Source: Candidatus Bathyarchaeia archaeon (GTDB lineage: Archaea; Thermoproteota; Bathyarchaeia; Bathyarchaeales; Bathycorpusculaceae). Taken from it: a DNA stretch of 64,000 bases. Below, piece by piece: positions 17,174 to 23,470 of this stretch; the first letter of the stretch is position 1; every line of letters starts with the position of its first letter. The stretch is from NCBI GenBank assembly GCA_049512075.1, contig JBEKXL010000008.1, positions 1 to 64,000 on the forward strand, in the 5' to 3' direction. A model generated the notes under the pieces. The model ran no database searches and was not told where the DNA came from. It saw nothing but the letters and a program-made list of their open reading frames with translations. The position numbers and the translations under genes were made by a program.

Positions 17174-17500
17174 TCAATGGACTCGGGAGATAATGTAATC
17201 GTTCACAGTTTGAAGAAACGACTCTTCTAGTTCTATGCCGTAATGTTCTGCTAGAACGAAGATTATGTAAAGCAGATCTGAGAGTTCAGTGGCCAGCATC
17301 TCCTTTGTTTTGGGTTTTTCAGGCGGCTTGAACCCTTCAAGCCCTTTAACCACGGCGGCGACCTCTCCAGCTTCTTCCAACAGGTCAGTAACCATTACGA
17401 ACGGTGTCCATGTCCTACTCCGCTCAGGGTCGAGCTTGTCGTTGATTTTCCTAAAATTCTTCCAACAGAGATGCTGAGCATCGCGCAAAGTCACAGACAT
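17174..17500 (-). CDS. MazG-like nucleotide pyrophosphohydrolase
   Basis: LLEEAGEVA...ELSDLLY motif; GGTGA RBS before ATG at 17500. Confidence 0.9.
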   Translation of the reverse strand: MSVTLRDAQHLCWKNFRKINDKLDPERSRTWTPFVMVTDLLEEAGEVAAVVKGLEGFKPPEKPKTKEMLATELSDLLYIIFVLAEHYGIELEESFLQTVNDYIISRVH

Positions 17501-17560
17501 ACGAATCACCCGCGGAGATTTGTGGGACTGGTCTAATAATGGTTTTCCAGACATGAATTC

Positions 17561-18685
17561 TCAGGGGATTATCTCGCAGCCATTATATTTCATATATTCA
17601 AAATCCTCTATTCGAACTTTCTCTCTTTTGATTAGTTCTTCTATCCTAGGCATTTGCTCACGGACAGCTTGTATCAAGTTCCTCACAGTATCACAGACGT
17701 GAGAATACGCCTCTTGGCTCCAACGTTTGGTAAGGGTCGCGTACAAGCATCTGCCCCCACACAGATTGAGTGCGCCGCATTGTGTGCATGGTTCGCCAAC
17801 GTCAATTTTCTTCAGTTTCAAAGGATCTGCATTACTGATGTGACCGAGATAGTAGTCTTTCATTCCCCACATCGTTGGACAGGGAATTATATATCCGTCT
17901 GTCTGGATGGCATAGTTGATCCATCCTCCACCGCAACGGAGAAGATTCTTGTCTTCTTTGTGAAGAAAGGAATGGGCCACGCCGAGGATTGGGTAAAGCC
18001 GAAGGACGATGCCCTCGTTTTCCATCGTGTCAACCCAGAACTTGACAAGTCTAGCAACTCCAGGGTTGTAACACTCACGGCTCCATCGTTCGAAGTCCCT
18101 TCGCGCAAAATCATTCTTCCAAAAACCCGCATTCAACTGCCAATGAATGGAAGAAAATGAAAAATCTCCGTTGTTCAAAAGCCATGTGACTTGCGCATAT
18201 ATGTCAGTTTGCTCCATAACCGTCATTCTGGCAATCAACTCGCCCTTGAAACCGTTTTGCCGTATCAATTTCAAGTTGCGGAAGACTTTTTGGAAAGTCC
18301 CTGTTCCTCGATAGTGGTCTGTTAGTGCTTCATCTCCATCTACAGAAACAAGTATCGTGTGGAAACGATTAACGTACGTTGGTTTCAGATTATCAAGTAG
18401 CAAACCATTTGTCTGAATCATGAAATGCTTGACCCTGACCTTGTCCATAATTCTCCTTATTTCTTCAGTACACAGCAAGGGCTCTCCACCATAGAAAGTC
18501 AAGACGCAGTCATTGTCCTGTTCACAGAAATTCCTGAGCAAATCAATGTCGTAGCCCATCTTCTTGGGCAACGCGTAATCAACATCATAACCTGAGAAAT
18601 CCTCATCCATATCGTCCAATGCTTCGCCAAAGCAGTATCGGCACTGTGAATTGCATTCGGTGGTAAGTATCACATGAAAGAACAT
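17561..18685 (-). CDS. Radical SAM/SPASM protein (TIGR04084/AF0577-like)
   Basis: CNSQCRYC, FYGGEPLL, QTNG; SPASM CGGG..PCP..CxxCxxxxxCGGRC; ends NGCEIIP. Confidence 0.9.
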   Translation of the reverse strand: MFFHVILTTECNSQCRYCFGEALDDMDEDFSGYDVDYALPKKMGYDIDLLRNFCEQDNDCVLTFYGGEPLLCTEEIRRIMDKVRVKHFMIQTNGLLLDNLKPTYVNRFHTILVSVDGDEALTDHYRGTGTFQKVFRNLKLIRQNGFKGELIARMTVMEQTDIYAQVTWLLNNGDFSFSSIHWQLNAGFWKNDFARRDFERWSRECYNPGVARLVKFWVDTMENEGIVLRLYPILGVAHSFLHKEDKNLLRCGGGWINYAIQTDGYIIPCPTMWGMKDYYLGHISNADPLKLKKIDVGEPCTQCGALNLCGGRCLYATLTKRWSQEAYSHVCDTVRNLIQAVREQMPRIEELIKREKVRIEDFEYMKYNGCEIIP

Positions 18686-18716
18686 GTTTCCCAATTGGAA
18701 GTAAGAATTCCCGCTC

Positions 18717-19949
18717 TTAAGCGTATTTTTCCTTGGTCTTCTTAGCCTTCTCAATATATCCCTTAAGCTCTCTTTCCTTAAGGTTCTTTTCAGGCAAGGT
18801 TTCAGGCGCGTACAGCAGAGGCAAAATTGCCAAGAACAAGAAGAGACTCGCCACAGAAAAAACGGCGGTGACAGAAACTGAAGCGACAATGTCAGGACCT
18901 ACAAGTTTTTGTAGGAGATTGGAAAAAAGGAGAGGAATACCACCGAGAGCATAGTATTTTTTGCTCGAGTTTTCATAGGCCAGATCTCCCCATAATGTCA
19001 TGAAGAACACCACTCCTAGCATACCCCAAGCAATTCCATCCACTACGGTGTAGAAGGACCAGCCAATAAATGACAGCGAAAAAATGCCCAACACGGCATA
19101 CCCCAGGCCCAGCATTATGAAACCAGAAATAACCACCACTTTTCGACCGACAGTATCACACAGGACACCACCTACAAGGGCAAAAACAGCAGTAAAGATG
19201 GTTTCGATTGTGGCAGATGCATTAACAAAACTCTCTCCAAAATGGCTGTTGAGAATCGGAACGCTCAAGTAATTTACAAGAGCAAACATAATCCATGCAG
19301 AAAAATACAGGAAAAAAGAACGCTTTCGAATTATGGTCATGTAGGAGGACGTTTTTTTAACGGCAGACCTTTCAACTGGGTTAAGCAGAATGAATACAAT
19401 CAATCCAACAAACCTCAACGCTCCCAAAGTGCCAAATTGCGTTCGGTAGTCCAAGGGCTCAATAATCATCGCCGAAATGAAAATGCCAACAAAAATAGCA
19501 AAGAATACAATAGCGCTCACACGACCTCTATTCTCTACAGCCGTGCCTTCAGTCAAATATTCCATGCTAGCTGGCATACCAAAACCCAAAGTGGCGCCCC
19601 AGAGAAAAGCCACAAAACCAACCCAAAAAAAGTTCCCCATGTCGATTGCCAAAGGTATCATGGAAGCCACCGCGCCAGAGGCCATCCAAATCTCTAAGAA
19701 ACGAAGGTTTGCCGTTCCTCTGGGAAAGAAGGCTCCTATTAGGGCAGCTGTTGCAGTAGCAGCAGCGTTAATGACCAGAATCAAGAGATTTTCGTAATAA
19801 CCTATACCTGATGCGATCTTACTTAACACAGTGGATGATATAAAAAACCAGATTAGCCCACCAGAGACAAGAACTATTAGTGAAGAAAGGTTTTTCCCAC
19901 TTAACCCTAGATTTGATCGAAAGACTCGACTCAACGTGGTCAATGGCAT
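18717..19949 (-). CDS. MFS transporter
   Basis: About 12 TM helices, ENRGRVS, GVLCDTVGRK motif A, APETLPE. Confidence 0.9.
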   Translation of the reverse strand: MPLTTLSRVFRSNLGLSGKNLSSLIVLVSGGLIWFFISSTVLSKIASGIGYYENLLILVINAAATATAALIGAFFPRGTANLRFLEIWMASGAVASMIPLAIDMGNFFWVGFVAFLWGATLGFGMPASMEYLTEGTAVENRGRVSAIVFFAIFVGIFISAMIIEPLDYRTQFGTLGALRFVGLIVFILLNPVERSAVKKTSSYMTIIRKRSFFLYFSAWIMFALVNYLSVPILNSHFGESFVNASATIETIFTAVFALVGGVLCDTVGRKVVVISGFIMLGLGYAVLGIFSLSFIGWSFYTVVDGIAWGMLGVVFFMTLWGDLAYENSSKKYYALGGIPLLFSNLLQKLVGPDIVASVSVTAVFSVASLFLFLAILPLLYAPETLPEKNLKERELKGYIEKAKKTKEKYA

Positions 19950-20021
19950 CGTTAGAGCCTATATATTACTATTACAGATAAAACCTTTGGCAAAGTCATT
20001 CTCTGCTGTTGCTCTGCAGAA

Positions 20022-20037
20022 CAGAAATGTTTTTAAA
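20022..20037 (+). promoter_or_regulatory. BRE/TATA promoter of the small peptide gene
   Basis: CAGAAA-TG-TTTTTAAA, about 25 bp upstream of a leader with tandem GGTGA RBS motifs. Confidence 0.6.
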
Positions 20038-20080
20038 GTAATAGTGTAGAACACATATACAGGTGAGAAAGGTGAAAAAT

Positions 20081-20122
20081 GTGAGACGCAAACCTATTAG
20101 AATTTTTGGTTGGGGCAGATAG
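20081..20122 (+). CDS. Putative precursor peptide MRRKPIRIFGWGR (ComX-like; in-frame alternative GTG starts at 20063 and 20072)
   Basis: GTG AGA CGC AAA CCT ATT AGA ATT TTT GGT TGG GGC AGA TAG; GGTGA 5 nt upstream; Trp third from the C-terminus; converges on the prenyltransferase gene. Confidence 0.65.
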   Translation: MRRKPIRIFGWGR

Positions 20123-20124
20123 AC

Positions 20125-21156
20125 TCATTCCTGTCCTATTTTTATGTCCTCGTAGATTGGATCTAGCAAGTGGCTCAATAATTGCGCTGCTTTCCTCTCT
20201 TTAAGAATCTTCAAACTTGATAGAGCCGTCTTCTTCAGTTCATCCATATACTTCTTCAGTTCTTTGATCCCTTCACTGCGTGAAATAATGTTCACTATTT
20301 TTCGCGAATCGCTGTCCGATAATTTCCTTTTCTTAAGTATTGATAAAACTTCATTCTTAACGTTCATGTCTCTGAAAGCAAAGAGCAAAGGTAGTGGGAG
20401 GCATTCCTTTTCCTTCCTGTTCTGTAGTTCTTCAGGTTCATAAATGTCTATGAATTCATCGCGTATCATTGTGAGCACGCATAAAAGTCTTCCGAAAATT
20501 CCTAGCGCGTCCTCTTCTGCTTTGCTGCCCCCGCCAACAATTGCTCCTATTCTAGCATGCATTTCCGAACATCCCGATTTTTGCGTGACTATTTTCATCA
20601 AGTCTTCTGGCACTAAATTGAAGTTACCTCTTAGGTTAACTTCACTTGCAACGCCTGTTCCAACTTCAAACAAGGCTTCTTTCACCATGTCAGCTATCTC
20701 TTGTCTTTCTTCGACACGAAAATGCAGGATGGCCTCATTCAAATGCATCAAACCCTCGTAGAAAAGAACGTCTCCAGCAAGTATTGCCATATCTTGTCCA
20801 TATTTGCCATAGAGAGTAGGCTTGCCTGCTTTCGTTCCTTGTTTGTCAATGACATCATCGTGTACGTCCATTGCTCCTCTTAGCAATACCAGTGATGCGC
20901 CAAGCCGTAATGTCTTGTCTGGTTTTCCTTTGACTGCTTTGCAAGCCAATGCCATCAAGCCCGGATATTCCACGTCAAGCCACACTTCTTGTACAAAGTA
21001 ATCTAGTGCTTCGCGAACGTTGCGATTCTCAATGTCTTCTTCAAGTATGATTTTCTGTGCCACTTTGAATGCTGGCTTGCCATATCTGCAAAGCAAACGG
21101 TGCACTTGTTGAGCTGTAAGCAGGGCTTTCATTGTGCGTTTCGTCTCGCACTGCAT
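20125..21156 (-). CDS. Divergent polyprenyl-synthetase-family protein (ComQ-like prenyltransferase candidate)
   Basis: FARM HDDVID and AILAGD are present; GKRxRP and RRG are absent; second motif degenerate (IRDEFID). Confidence 0.85.
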   Translation of the reverse strand: MQCETKRTMKALLTAQQVHRLLCRYGKPAFKVAQKIILEEDIENRNVREALDYFVQEVWLDVEYPGLMALACKAVKGKPDKTLRLGASLVLLRGAMDVHDDVIDKQGTKAGKPTLYGKYGQDMAILAGDVLFYEGLMHLNEAILHFRVEERQEIADMVKEALFEVGTGVASEVNLRGNFNLVPEDLMKIVTQKSGCSEMHARIGAIVGGGSKAEEDALGIFGRLLCVLTMIRDEFIDIYEPEELQNRKEKECLPLPLLFAFRDMNVKNEVLSILKKRKLSDSDSRKIVNIISRSEGIKELKKYMDELKKTALSSLKILKERKAAQLLSHLLDPIYEDIKIGQE

Positions 21157-21405
21157 GATTCTGTCATATAAGTACTACATGTTTAAAAGTTCTTAGCTCA
21201 TCGCATATTTCGCTATTCGTATCTACCAATACTTGCACCTTGTTTCACGCACTTAGCGCGCGCGCTAAAGCGTATAGCAACAACACTCCTGAAAAGTGCA
21301 GTCGAATACATTCAGAAAAAAAAGGAACAAGGCAGTTTTGCACGTTAATTCAACGCGCGCGCAAAGAAACGGAATGCTCCCGTTTGGATCATGGTTTTAT
21401 AGGTG

Positions 21406-22398
21406 TCAGAGATCCTCAAGAGTCGAAGACGCGAAGCTTAGCAGTTGATCTCTCAAGGTCTTGTTTCTTACCGTAGACGTTACACCCACGGCTTCAGCGG
21501 CGAGTTCTTCCATATGTTTCTTTAGTTTTCCCGCGTTCTTGGCCTCGAACACCGCGTCAACAAGAGCATCCACGTCCCTGTCTGCATTCTCTTTTGCCAG
21601 CAGCTTTTCAATCTTTTTCTTTGATTCCGCATCTTGCATGGCGTACAGAATTGGAATGGGCAAGTATTCGCTCGTGACCCGATGATTCAGTTCCTCGACA
21701 TCGAAAACATCTACGAACTCTTCTCGCAGAATAGCTAATGTTCCCAGAATTCTCCCATACCTGGCCAATGTTTCAACTTCTTCATGTGTCCCCCCACCGA
21801 TTATGGCTCCGATTCGCATGTCTCCTTCGATGCTCGCTGCCTTCATTTTCACAATTTCCAGATACTCCTCCAATGGGGCATCAGCTTTGTTCTTCAAGCT
21901 CAGCTCCAACGCGTGTGCGTTGCCGAATTCATACAGTGATTGTTTGATGGTTTCGAAAACTTTTGCCCTCTCCTGATGTGACTCTCCTAGTGATTTTCCA
22001 AAGAGCGTGAATCCTTCTATTAAGAAGGCGTTTCCTAGAAGAAGTGCTATTTCTTCTCCGAACTTGCCAAGAACTGTAGGTTCGCCATGCTTCAGTTCTG
22101 ATTTGTCGATTATGTCATCATGTATATCAAAAGCTGCAGCTATCATGGCCAGTGCGGCCTGAAATGGAATTGCTACCTGCGGGTCTCCGCGAACCGCTTC
22201 AAATGCCACGGCAAAGAGCCCTGGATGTGTAACATCGTTCCAGCGTGAAACATAATATTCCAGTGCATCACGCAGTTTCCTGTATTGGATATTTTCCGAG
22301 AGAATTGTTCTCTTGGCGAATTCCAATCCGTTTTTGCTTTTTTTCGCGAGTTCTGTCAAAACTATTTCGGATTGCTTTCTGGCTTTGCTACGGCTCAT
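21406..22398 (-). CDS. Second divergent polyprenyl-synthetase-family protein
   Basis: FARM HDDIID, ALLLGN; RRG replaced by KHG; second motif LREEFVD. Confidence 0.85.
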   Translation of the reverse strand: MSRSKARKQSEIVLTELAKKSKNGLEFAKRTILSENIQYRKLRDALEYYVSRWNDVTHPGLFAVAFEAVRGDPQVAIPFQAALAMIAAAFDIHDDIIDKSELKHGEPTVLGKFGEEIALLLGNAFLIEGFTLFGKSLGESHQERAKVFETIKQSLYEFGNAHALELSLKNKADAPLEEYLEIVKMKAASIEGDMRIGAIIGGGTHEEVETLARYGRILGTLAILREEFVDVFDVEELNHRVTSEYLPIPILYAMQDAESKKKIEKLLAKENADRDVDALVDAVFEAKNAGKLKKHMEELAAEAVGVTSTVRNKTLRDQLLSFASSTLEDL

Positions 22399-22463: not shown

Positions 22464-22832
22464 TTATTCCAAGTCTCGTCCTTGTATCTGCTCTTCCAGT
22501 ATTGTATTGTAAGTCCTGAGGTATTGTTCGCCTTTTCTTGTTATTGTGTACACTTTTCTCGTTCTTCCGCCGTGTTGTTGTTTTTGGCTTGTAAGGAAGC
22601 TTTCACGCTCCAAGGCATTAAGTAACGGGTAGAGTGCTCCATGTCTGAGTTTTACGCCGAATTTTGTTTCTGCCTGTTTCTTTATCAAGTAGCCCCACAT
22701 TGGCTGGGTCCGGATGAGTCTTAGCATTTGGATGTCGAGCAGGTTTCTGGTGATGCGTTGTACAAGTTCCTGTTTGTAGGCTTCTGCCAATTCTTTCACG
22801 TTCTTGTTATGTCCTATTCTGTACTGGTTCAT
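22464..22832 (-). CDS. PadR-family transcriptional regulator
   Basis: PMWGYLI, GALYPLLNALE, RTRKVYTITRKG. Confidence 0.92.
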   Translation of the reverse strand: MNQYRIGHNKNVKELAEAYKQELVQRITRNLLDIQMLRLIRTQPMWGYLIKKQAETKFGVKLRHGALYPLLNALERESFLTSQKQQHGGRTRKVYTITRKGEQYLRTYNTILEEQIQGRDLE

Positions 22833-23053: not shown

Positions 23054-23470
23054 ATGATGAACAACACAAAAGAAGTTCAGGCCAAACTGATGAAAGGCCT
23101 GCTGGACCTGATAATACTCCAATTCCTAAACGAACAGCCCGTGCACGGCTACCAGATAATCACAAAAATCCGAAAAACCTTCGGAGTCTACTTCGGCCCA
23201 AGCACCATCTATCCTCTTCTGGGAACACTGGAGAAAAAGAGGTTCGTGAAAAGCGAATGGGACATGAGCACTGAAAGACCGAGAAAAGTTTACAAACTGA
23301 CCACTGAAGGCCAGAACCTGCTGAACTTCACAGAAGACTCGCTCAACTTCATTTGCAGAAAAATAGGCACACCCGGAGTATCCAAGAACGACATGCCAGA
23401 AGCGACCATTCAACACTCAGCACTTCGCCCCTTCCTGAGAAAACTCGAAGAACCGAAACCAATAATGTAG
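23054..23470 (+). CDS. PadR-family transcriptional regulator
   Basis: KGLLDLIIL, PVHGYQII, STIYPLL, RPRKVYKLTTEG. Confidence 0.94.
   Translation: MMNNTKEVQAKLMKGLLDLIILQFLNEQPVHGYQIITKIRKTFGVYFGPSTIYPLLGTLEKKRFVKSEWDMSTERPRKVYKLTTEGQNLLNFTEDSLNFICRKIGTPGVSKNDMPEATIQHSALRPFLRKLEEPKPIM

Follow-up and report, generated by a model that had tools for sequence, protein, structure and literature searches.

In the window analysed here, a 64,000-nucleotide stretch of a Bathyarchaeia genome (contig JBEKXL010000008.1), a short gap between a gene for a major facilitator superfamily (MFS) transporter and a polyprenyl-synthase-like gene, synA, holds a small open reading frame (sORF) oriented towards the synthase gene. 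The segment 20072-20122 on the + strand is very probably a genuine, translated-looking and selectively maintained micro-gene, with its own TATA box, initiator and GGTGA motif, which encodes the 16-residue peptide MKNVRRKPIRIFGWGR. The sORF appears to belong to a previously unannotated family of 12-20-codon genes, and to represent a new, widely conserved archaeal micro-gene.

The gap spans positions 19950-20124 and measures 175 bp, as the first-pass annotation of this DNA had described it, between the MFS gene (18717-19949, - strand) and synA (polyprenyl_synt, 20125-21156, - strand). The sORF is convergent with synA and divergent from the MFS gene, and its stop codon, TAG at 20120-20122, lies 2 bp from the stop of synA (20125-20127 on the - strand), a proximity that had also been correctly pointed out. 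The gene and the elements that surround it, including a B recognition element (BRE)-like sequence, are the following:

20072-20122, + strand: sORF micro-gene, GTG start, 16 codons, TAG stop, product MKNVRRKPIRIFGWGR
20062-20066, + strand: Shine-Dalgarno sequence GGTGA, 5 nt before the sORF start codon
20022-20037, + strand: predicted sORF promoter, BRE-like CAGAAATG (20022-20029) and TATA box TTTTTAAA (20030-20037)
20045-20053, + strand: operator-like site TGTAGAACA of the form TGT-N3-ACA, downstream of the TATA box and ahead of the presumed transcription start
20015-20023, + strand: upstream operator-like copy TGCAGAACA, between the two divergent TATA boxes
20057-20062, + strand: ATACAG initiator-like element, presumed sORF transcription start
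20139-20143, + strand: T5 run, possible archaeal terminator, 17 nt past the sORF stop, inside the 3' coding end of synA
20075-20079, - strand: T5 run, likely synthase mRNA terminator, antisense to sORF codons 2-3
19977-19987, - strand: AAGGTTTTATC, TATA region in the promoter of the divergent MFS gene, some 30 nt before ATG 19949

The first-pass annotation had proposed that the gap hides a gene for a product of 13-19 residues with a complete set of expression signals. The small gene and its signals hold up, frame, start, stop, Shine-Dalgarno sequence, TATA box and initiator being conserved in both close and distant relatives, but the length has to be amended, translation from GTG 20072 giving 16 residues, neither 13 nor 19.

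Signs of a coding frame in related spacers

In a single sequence taken alone, a GGTGA followed after 4-8 nt by a start codon and an open frame of 12-30 codons is not a rare pattern: it occurs 334 times in the genome, and only 7 of these cases also present a TATA-like hexamer 20-60 nt upstream of the start. Comparative evidence was obtained by scanning metagenome contigs with the synthase protein, which yielded 15 close loci at 72-93% protein identity, two of which end before the spacer; 10 distinct versions of the sORF, that of the window included, were compared. Frameshifts or stops in orthologous spacers, which the first-pass annotation regarded as incompatible with a gene, were not seen, the frame being intact in all 13 close loci that reach the spacer. 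Within this frame the start codon switches between GTG (six versions), TTG (two) and ATG (two), all three stop codons, TAG, TAA and TGA, are used, and the three length differences among versions are all of whole codons. The alternative frames of the + strand hold stops, in 10 of 10 versions for frame +1 and in 9 of 10 for frame +2. Extra nucleotide states number 17, 12 and 23 at codon positions 1, 2 and 3, respectively, the third position being the highest. The bias towards synonymous substitution that had been suggested as a check was found, with a ratio of nonsynonymous to synonymous differences (pN/pS) of 0.42-0.45 in the close versions, against 0.25 for the synthase C-terminus, and of 0.23 in the Methanomethylicia-type group described below.

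In the clade of the window, residues M1, P8 and W14 of MKNVRRKPIRIFGWGR are invariant, and K2, K7, R10 and R16 are nearly so. Of the 10 close versions, 9 have the triplet W-G-R, W-S-R or W-R-R and 8 have R-x3-W; identity between the window and locus L021 is 93% for the synthase and 63% for the peptide. Conservation of the Trp codon, on which the original proposal had been made to depend, turns out to be partial: the residue is invariant in this clade and also occurs in Methanomethylicia and Hadesarchaea, but one subclade of Bathyarchaeia lacks it.

The choice of start codon follows from the same comparison. Two GGTGA motifs, each 5 nt before a GTG, had been described, and both exist (20062-20066, before GTG 20072, and 20071-20075, before GTG 20081), but the second is not conserved and only the first looks functional; GTG 20063 is also in frame with the sORF. 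Starts at 20063 and 20081 are excluded by the close relatives, the codon at 20063 being GCG in L032 and that at 20081 being GTA, ACA or ATG elsewhere, mostly not a start. The 20072 start, the intact frame and the pattern of substitutions therefore define the gene as 20072-20122, with MKNVRRKPIRIFGWGR as its predicted product.

Other readings of the same DNA were considered and rejected. A reverse-strand ORF of 31 residues (20033-20128), which overlaps the synthase stop through an ATGA, is often open as a frame, but its start is unconserved, and it appears to be an antisense shadow; the reverse-strand frames are open in 8, 9 and 5 of the 10 versions. A structured RNA was also discarded, RNAalifold yielding 3 pairs, a consensus energy of -0.11 kcal/mol and no compensatory pairs. 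The single-sequence fold of the spacer is weaker than those of shuffled sequences (z = +1.27), and Rfam gave no matches in the gap, the only sub-threshold match, to a snoRNA, lying outside it. Regarding transcription, one RNA-library contig (from a single metatranscriptome run of a related strain) spans the 3' end of the synthase gene and most of the sORF, its strand and ends not being visible; from the synthase 3' end it reaches about the - strand T5 run at 20075-20079, and DNA carry-over is possible, so that it is not counted as evidence for the gene.

Expression signals around the gene

GGTGA is a true Shine-Dalgarno sequence in this organism. It occurs between positions -16 and -4 of 63 of the 1594 first ATGs of long ORFs in the window's genome, against 4 of 1594 in a control interval, and the 3' end of the 16S rRNA, GGATCACCTCC, is complementary to it. 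In the spacers of relatives, mean pairwise identity over the Shine-Dalgarno region (20062-20068) reaches 0.95, GGCGA being found solely in L032.

The BRE and TATA elements of the first-pass annotation, CAGAAATG and TTTTTAAA, are present, and the TATA box is conserved in relatives: its segment has a mean identity of 0.85 among the close versions, and distant loci carry CTTTTAAG or CTTATAAG at the same position. The spacer as a whole varies between 0.68 and 0.96 in mean identity by segment; its best-conserved block, at 0.96, is GATAAAACCTT (19977-19987), the - strand TATA region of the MFS gene, whose GATAAAAC recurs in distant loci. Archaeal transcription starts approximately 25 nt downstream of the TATA box, a geometry that would place the start of the sORF transcript near 20058. 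At the initiator-like element, the sequence TATACAGG is invariant in 13 of 14 aligned rows, L031 having GATACAGG, and is also present in distant loci. As for termination, a T run of at least 5 after the sORF is kept in 6 of the 10 distinct close versions, which may simply reflect synthase codons. The T5 run of the sORF falls within the synthase gene and that of the synthase gene within the sORF, so that overlapping mRNAs are expected.

The operator-like site downstream of the TATA box is kept as TGT(A/T)(G/C)AACA in close and distant loci, including L164 of the Hadesarchaea as well as L117 and L119, two loci from outside the window's order. A second site, of TGTTCAACA type, stands upstream of the TATA box in relatives, where TGT-N3-ACA extends to ATGTG-N5-CACAT, that is, ATGT-N7-ACAT. 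The PadR operator consensus is a palindrome of the ATGT-N8-ACAT type, and the TGT-N3-ACA site is present also in lineages where no PadR gene was found within the flank. From this conservation we infer that a regulator binds at these sites. Elsewhere in the genome, at about 318600-318646 of contig C1, two exact copies of TGTTCTACAG lie 38 nt apart in a gene-poor stretch, beside a small zinc-ribbon-like ORF; they are possibly another site for the same regulator, and no link was found. This 9-mer has 31 occurrences in the genome, with approximately 21 expected.

A family of micro-genes in a variable cassette

Members of the sORF family occupy a fixed position, convergent with the 3' end of a polyprenyl-synthase-like gene and divergent from an MFS gene. 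A scan of named genomes identified carriers in Bathyarchaeia, in Methanomethylicia and in one Hadesarchaea metagenome-assembled genome (MAG). A narrow peptide profile, A1, run on 201 genomes of the order, recovered only G000 and G069 below an E value of 1e-3; this profile being too narrow, position-based scans were therefore used. In species-representative genomes of the same order, in which the synthase is 30-60% identical, the order synthase-gap-MFS is retained, and the gap holds a convergent micro-ORF behind the same arrangement of TATA box, TGT-N3-ACA, ATACAG and Shine-Dalgarno sequence; MQNRKRPKPIRSRGWL (L003) and MAKKPVRIAGWR (L015) are examples of such distant peptides. Family members share a core, P-[VI]-R, behind which stands a short aromatic tail; the Arg is followed by 3-7 residues.

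A fixed pattern matched 25 of 33 order-level loci, with two of these loci lacking sequence and three more members being visible by eye; the base rate of this pattern is 38 matches per 2.73 Mb in the window's own genome. Among pattern-matching loci, Trp is present in 14 of 15 with a synA-like synthase versus 3 of 10 with a synB-like one (synB being the tandem paralogue listed below). With a broader pattern, 53 of 75 named species loci had a match on the expected strand and in the expected place, compared with 2, 1 and 2 of 75 for three control placements, and Trp lies within the last eight residues in 34 of these 53 matches.

Outside the order, a K/R-rich pattern gave 0 of 12, a false negative that was corrected by inspection and a new pattern: all seven loci outside the order with an MFS match hold a sister form, M-K-x-Y-[NS]-P-T-x-[VI]-R-x-W..., sometimes as two tandem copies. 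Carriers in Methanomethylicia include Methanomethylicus and Methanosuratincola (complete genomes CP186953.1 and CP130488.1), with MKNYNPTPVRLWVPG in L185, and the Hadesarchaea form, MKPVLRHSPVRIWMSPYG in L164, has the same operator, initiator and Shine-Dalgarno sequence. The seven loci were grouped with nine named ones (eight Methanomethylicia and one 'uncultured Nitrososphaerota' record) as the Methanomethylicia-type group, in which 16 of 16 loci hold a total of 21 sORF copies, in 12 distinct DNA versions, with pS 0.73 and pN 0.17, the source of the ratio of 0.23 given above. The named and other locus sets probably overlap, and their counts are not additive. Tandem copies occur in L185 (3418-3546), L194 (3418-3547), L176 (3484-3590), L180 (3492-3623), L110 and L113; in Methanomethylicia they are nearly or fully identical and approximately 65-85 nt apart, and a Shine-Dalgarno-like motif precedes each copy with a readable flank, that of the distal L180 copy, at the locus end, being unreadable.

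Two loci of Methanomassiliicoccaceae hold a possible longer relative. L190 and L195 share, roughly 95 nt from the stop of the synthase gene, a conserved ORF of 30 codons that includes A-R-K-x-I-A-P-V-R-x-L-F-K-F and may be a longer, Trp-less member of the same family; in two other Methanomassiliicoccales loci (one from a Methanomassiliicoccaceae MAG and one from a MAG with a label at order level only) no micro-ORF was seen. One further contig, L188, assigned to a bacterial MAG ('Candidatus Sulfotelmatobacter sp.'), encodes an archaeal-type synthase, probably through a binning error. Counted at family level, the module is found in 11 of 16, 5 of 5, 0 of 6, 0 of 2 and 16 of 25 cases, and this patchy distribution suggests that its role is accessory, not one of housekeeping.

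The genes around the sORF in the window, which involve trans-isoprenyl diphosphate synthase (trans-IDS) superfamily members and a radical S-adenosylmethionine (SAM) enzyme, are the following:

18717-19949, - strand: MFS transporter gene (PF07690, 59.3 bits)
20125-21156, - strand: synA, polyprenyl-synthase-like, trans-IDS superfamily (PF00348, 77 bits)
21406-22398, - strand: synB, tandem paralogue of the synA subfamily (PF00348, 90 bits)
17561-18685, - strand: radical SAM/SPASM gene of the TIGR04084 family, separated by 31 nt from the MFS gene upstream of it
22464-22832, - strand: PadR-family regulator, directly upstream of synB (PF03551, 65 bits)
23054-23470, + strand: second, divergent PadR-family regulator (PF03551, 69 bits)

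The two synthase-like proteins, 35% identical to each other, form a distinct branch of the trans-IDS superfamily, and both lie far below every NCBIfam equivalog cut-off. The first aspartate-rich motif (FARM) of synA is HDDVID and its second (SARM) RDEFID, the SARM of synB being REEFVD; HDD[IV][IV]D is found in 44 of 49 aligned synthases (from the window and the fetched loci), with L005, L007, L107, L109 and L099 departing at one position. A PDB sequence search with synA found chain-elongating synthases and the indole prenyltransferases 9v4g and 9v4j to be equally distant, and is thus not discriminating. In the 249-bp spacer between synA and synB (21157-21405), a scan for a Trp-plus-P-x-R/K-P pattern detected no sORF; G030 and G057 also carry tandem synthase paralogues, with one sORF, after the distal paralogue.

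The MFS protein has weak NCBIfam similarity to the exporters EntS and BcbE. Its gene is found downstream of the synthase gene in 66 of 80 named loci, and in some loci that display the sORF-synthase linkage it was not found within the flank. The radical SAM protein scores 313 bits against TIGR04084 (cut-off 225), its next-best family matches being peptide maturases, and its identity in relatives is 63-73% in most loci, and 38% and 59% in two. TIGR04084 exceeds its cut-off in 130 of 301 genomes and is common in Thermoproteota that lack the cassette. The true start of the gene, fixed by 45 homologues, is ATG 18685 (374 residues), 31 nt after the MFS stop. An N-terminal recognition domain, suggested by a 173-nt overlap with the MFS gene, was rejected as an artefact of the long ORF that begins at TTG 18889 (17561-18889, 442 residues): its 68-residue N-terminal extension is not open in most of the 45 homologues, and where other loci match this 'extension' by tblastn, the match is an echo of the MFS 3' end in an alternative frame. 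On the same strand, the radical SAM gene is followed by a gene for a MazG-like nucleotide pyrophosphohydrolase (17174-17554, - strand), which was found in 0 of 140 relatives' loci searched, whose flanks seldom extend far beyond the radical SAM gene.

PadR genes follow in 18-19 of the 80 named loci, and in many Bathyarchaeia loci two of them flank the synthase, with identities of 44-96%. The regulator at 22464-22832 is 44-86% identical in relatives, and is far more conserved than the synthase or the MFS protein. In L016, from the same genus, the PadR proteins are up to 86% and 95.7% identical, whereas the adjacent synthase is at 32-55% and the MFS protein at 39%. With synthase, sORF and MFS at 30-60% identity, PadR at 57-96% and radical SAM at 63-73% in most loci, the synthase/sORF/MFS part of the region is hypervariable, and the PadR and radical SAM genes that frame it are conserved. 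In some loci the radical SAM gene is absent or distant, and PadR is not universal; the stable core of the cassette is therefore taken to be the synthase-like gene, the sORF and the MFS gene.

Possible roles of the peptide

It is tentatively suggested, at somewhat less than even confidence, that the peptide acts in trans with the neighbouring enzyme or transporter, as the substrate (precursor) of a small modification-and-export pathway. In such a pathway, the basic N-terminus and the invariant P-[VI]-R would constitute the part involved in recognition or processing, while the short aromatic tail (here IFGWGR) would be the part that is modified, at or near Trp14. The synthase-like enzyme would prenylate the peptide, as ComQ, PalQ and StheQ do with theirs; in Bathyarchaeia the downstream radical SAM/SPASM enzyme may contribute too, with the W-G-R triplet as one potential target, and the modified peptide would be exported by the MFS protein. 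Through the two TGT-N3-ACA sites that flank the TATA box of the sORF, one repressor would switch the peptide gene and the divergent MFS operon jointly, the two tightly linked PadR proteins being candidates for this role in Bathyarchaeia. A leader-plus-core organisation had already been proposed by the first-pass annotation, and the conserved basic N-terminus, the P-[VI]-R motif and the variable aromatic tail fit it without proving it.

In the ComQ/ComX, PalQ/PalX and StheQ/StheX systems, an enzyme of the isoprenoid-synthase fold prenylates a near-C-terminal Trp of a neighbouring peptide, and in ComX168, PalX (core DNVRRFFW) and StheX this Trp lies 0-3 residues from the C-terminus (PMC10853753; bioRxiv 10.64898/2026.08.29.745113; PMC13290415). 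The archaeal cassette resembles the systems of Bacillus (ComQ), Paenibacillus (PalQ) and Sphaerobacter (StheQ) in having an isoprenoid-synthase-fold enzyme beside a short peptide gene with a near-C-terminal Trp, in the presence of the FARM (DDxxD), and in the fast divergence of enzyme and peptide. A substrate role is favoured because the synthase belongs to the trans-IDS superfamily, although the F-Q before its SARM is replaced, and because Trp is found near the C-terminus in most members, as in ComX168, PalX and StheX. It is also favoured by the two tandem sORF copies in Methanosuratincola and relatives, tandem duplication being typical of precursor genes; by the combination of conserved leader and variable tail, which fits a precursor; and by the rapid divergence of synthase, sORF and MFS within a stable frame, which recalls the comQXP cassette, known to be polymorphic.

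A further argument is that the next-best families of the radical SAM protein are peptide maturases and that there are known radical SAM enzymes which form cross-links in W-x-R/K motifs; a family of precursors that carry a single WxR/K motif has been described, as have six archaeal enzymes in cluster C11 (PMC11851443). Like the radical SAM cyclophane members of the RiPPs (peptides synthesised on ribosomes and then modified post-translationally), such as WprA/WprB (W-P-R), WgkA/WgkB (W-G-K) and streptide (K-x3-W), the window peptide has a W-x-R ending, W-G-R, and an R-x3-W, and a radical SAM/SPASM gene lies two genes away. In contrast to these systems, the enzyme belongs to TIGR04084, its relation to WprB not being established, there is no RiPP recognition element (RRE) domain or partner, the motif is variable across the sORF family, and the radical SAM gene is absent from Methanomethylicia loci. 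Precursor genes can be very small: mccA, for microcin C, has 7 codons and is accompanied by an MFS exporter, and pqqA has about 23 codons. These are likewise tiny stand-alone genes with their own ribosome-binding site; they belong to clusters for modification or export, and gene callers usually overlook them. Their modifying enzymes are unrelated, and the likeness considered here is one of gene layout.

A number of observations weigh against the precursor proposal. Known Trp-prenylating trans-IDS-like enzymes are defined by a pseudo-SARM, in which N-D-x-x-x replaces DDxxD (bioRxiv 10.64898/2026.08.29.745113), and a conserved Gln just upstream of the SARM recognises the indole (PMC13290415). 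By comparison with ComQ, PalQ and StheQ, the archaeal SARM is acidic, LR[DE][DE]xxD, and lacks the N-D of the pseudo-SARM, and the canonical F-Q that precedes it is replaced by T-M in synA, by A-I in synB and by similar residues in relatives, the conserved Gln being absent. ComX, PalX and StheX comprise 55-73 residues, compared to 12-20 for the archaeal peptide. One Bathyarchaeia subclade, that of the synB-like-synthase loci, has peptides without Trp, such as MKKAKKRKVPVRYIIP (L011) and MAKRVKKVPIRAGP (L017). The hosts are archaea, and the sORF is convergent with the enzyme gene, whereas comQ and comX are co-directional; there is also no adjacent histidine kinase, the MFS and PadR genes occurring at the frequencies given above. 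There was no sign of a protease gene. The radical SAM gene stands adjacent in 45 of the 80 named loci, but in no Methanomethylicia locus, and in G030 and G040, two Bathyarchaeia with the cassette, it is absent or 200 kb away. It starts at the CxxxCxxC region, and neither a RiPP recognition element, fused or adjacent, nor a PqqD-like Pfam match was found; among the 30 best TIGR04084 loci none has an MFS or synthase gene, and matches to the sORF pattern beside TIGR04084 genes of other Thermoproteota are at background level (2 in 119 kb). Finally, the RNA-library contig, being strand-blind, could represent the 3' untranslated region of the synthase.

A more specific form of the proposal, which we consider unlikely, is that the cassette is an archaeal counterpart of ComQXP, in which a novel branch of trans-IDS-like enzymes would lipidate the near-C-terminal Trp of a ribosomal peptide of 12-20 residues, with MFS export of the lipopeptide and an operator (bound by PadR in Bathyarchaeia) that closes a sensing loop. 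If true, it would represent the first ribosomal lipopeptide signal, or peptide quorum sensing, in archaea, and the synthase/peptide/transporter segment would diversify into 'pherotypes' between near-identical flanks.

The peptide could, instead of being a precursor, be an unmodified microprotein, a tiny regulatory subunit that binds or tunes the adjacent synthase-like enzyme or MFS protein. Small-protein enzyme modulators are known in archaea and bacteria, and sP26 of Methanosarcina mazei, with 23 residues, is comparable as an archaeal microprotein of fewer than 25 residues tied to one enzyme, although its gene does not neighbour that of its target in a conserved cassette and it is not linked to a transporter. 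A subunit role, which we consider rather doubtful, accounts for the same strict synteny with synthase and MFS genes, and the enzyme, which retains both acidic motifs, may be an ordinary prenyl-diphosphate enzyme. The type of tail tracks the synthase clade, as the Trp counts in synA-like and synB-like loci indicate, but this correlation corresponds to few independent events. The full-length conservation of Methanomethylicia-type peptides, with their low pN/pS, is more that of a binding partner than of a hypervariable core, whereas in the comparison of the window with L021 the tail outpaces the enzyme in divergence. In addition, the peptide is very basic, has 12-20 residues and lacks a hydrophobic helix suited to a membrane partner, and tandem duplicates together with a dedicated, repressible promoter suggest bulk, switchable production.

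The expected overlap of the two transcripts evokes a second alternative, that of a cis-acting regulatory ORF in which translation of, or stalling on, a basic P-x-R peptide sets antisense read-through into the synthase gene, the peptide itself having no function in trans. The sORF stop lies 2-24 nt from the synthase stop, so that transcripts must overlap, and the T run of each transcript is inside the other gene; polybasic stretches slow ribosomes, and several tails end in Pro or Trp, that of L017 ending in I-R-A-G-P as in the SecM arrest motif. We nonetheless regard this mechanism as distinctly improbable: there is no co-directional gene downstream, where the + strand is the antisense of two synthase genes and the next ORF of at least 90 residues begins at 23054, identical tandem copies that each have a Shine-Dalgarno sequence are hard to explain for an attenuator, and conservation is strongest in the N-terminal and middle parts, not at a fixed distance from the stop (3-7 residues after the Arg).

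Short cationic membrane-active peptides are rich in Arg and Lys and contain Trp, a composition shared by the sORF product, which, together with the adjoining MFS gene in 66 of 80 named loci and the patchy, accessory distribution, is compatible with an unmodified antimicrobial or signalling peptide exported by the MFS protein, the synthase and radical SAM genes being unrelated neighbours. This is highly improbable, given that the tightest and most widespread linkage is to the 3' end of the synthase gene, including in loci without MFS in the flank, and that the Trp-less subclade still retains the gene. The absence of any gene, with conservation explained by promoter, terminator or operator DNA of the flanking genes or by a non-coding RNA, is scarcely credible and already disfavoured, since the conservation of the entire spacer, the neighbours' promoter- and terminator-like elements within it and the mostly open reverse frames are outweighed by start switching, three stop codons, whole-codon length changes, the third-position excess, pN/pS values of 0.23-0.45 in two independent clades, a Shine-Dalgarno sequence at a fixed distance from the start, and the lack of a conserved reverse-frame start or RNA structure.

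No description of the sORF family or of its cassette was found in searches of full texts, supplementary tables (for example Table S7 of PMC11851443, on archaeal WxR/K precursors) being outside their scope. Genes of 12-20 codons are invisible to standard annotation, and here such a gene is conserved in at least three archaeal classes, in a fixed place within a five-to-six-gene cassette; its promoter, operator and ribosome-binding signals are unusually clear. For a branch of prenyl-synthase-like enzymes that is orphan and fast-evolving, and for the MFS protein that accompanies it, a candidate peptide substrate or partner is now available. The family offers a concrete starting point for testing whether Bathyarchaeia and Methanomethylicia make a modified ribosomal peptide or a peptide signal, which would be the first from these groups, and the existence of cultured Methanosuratincola strains (CP186953.1, CP130488.1) that carry two tandem copies makes peptidomics feasible.

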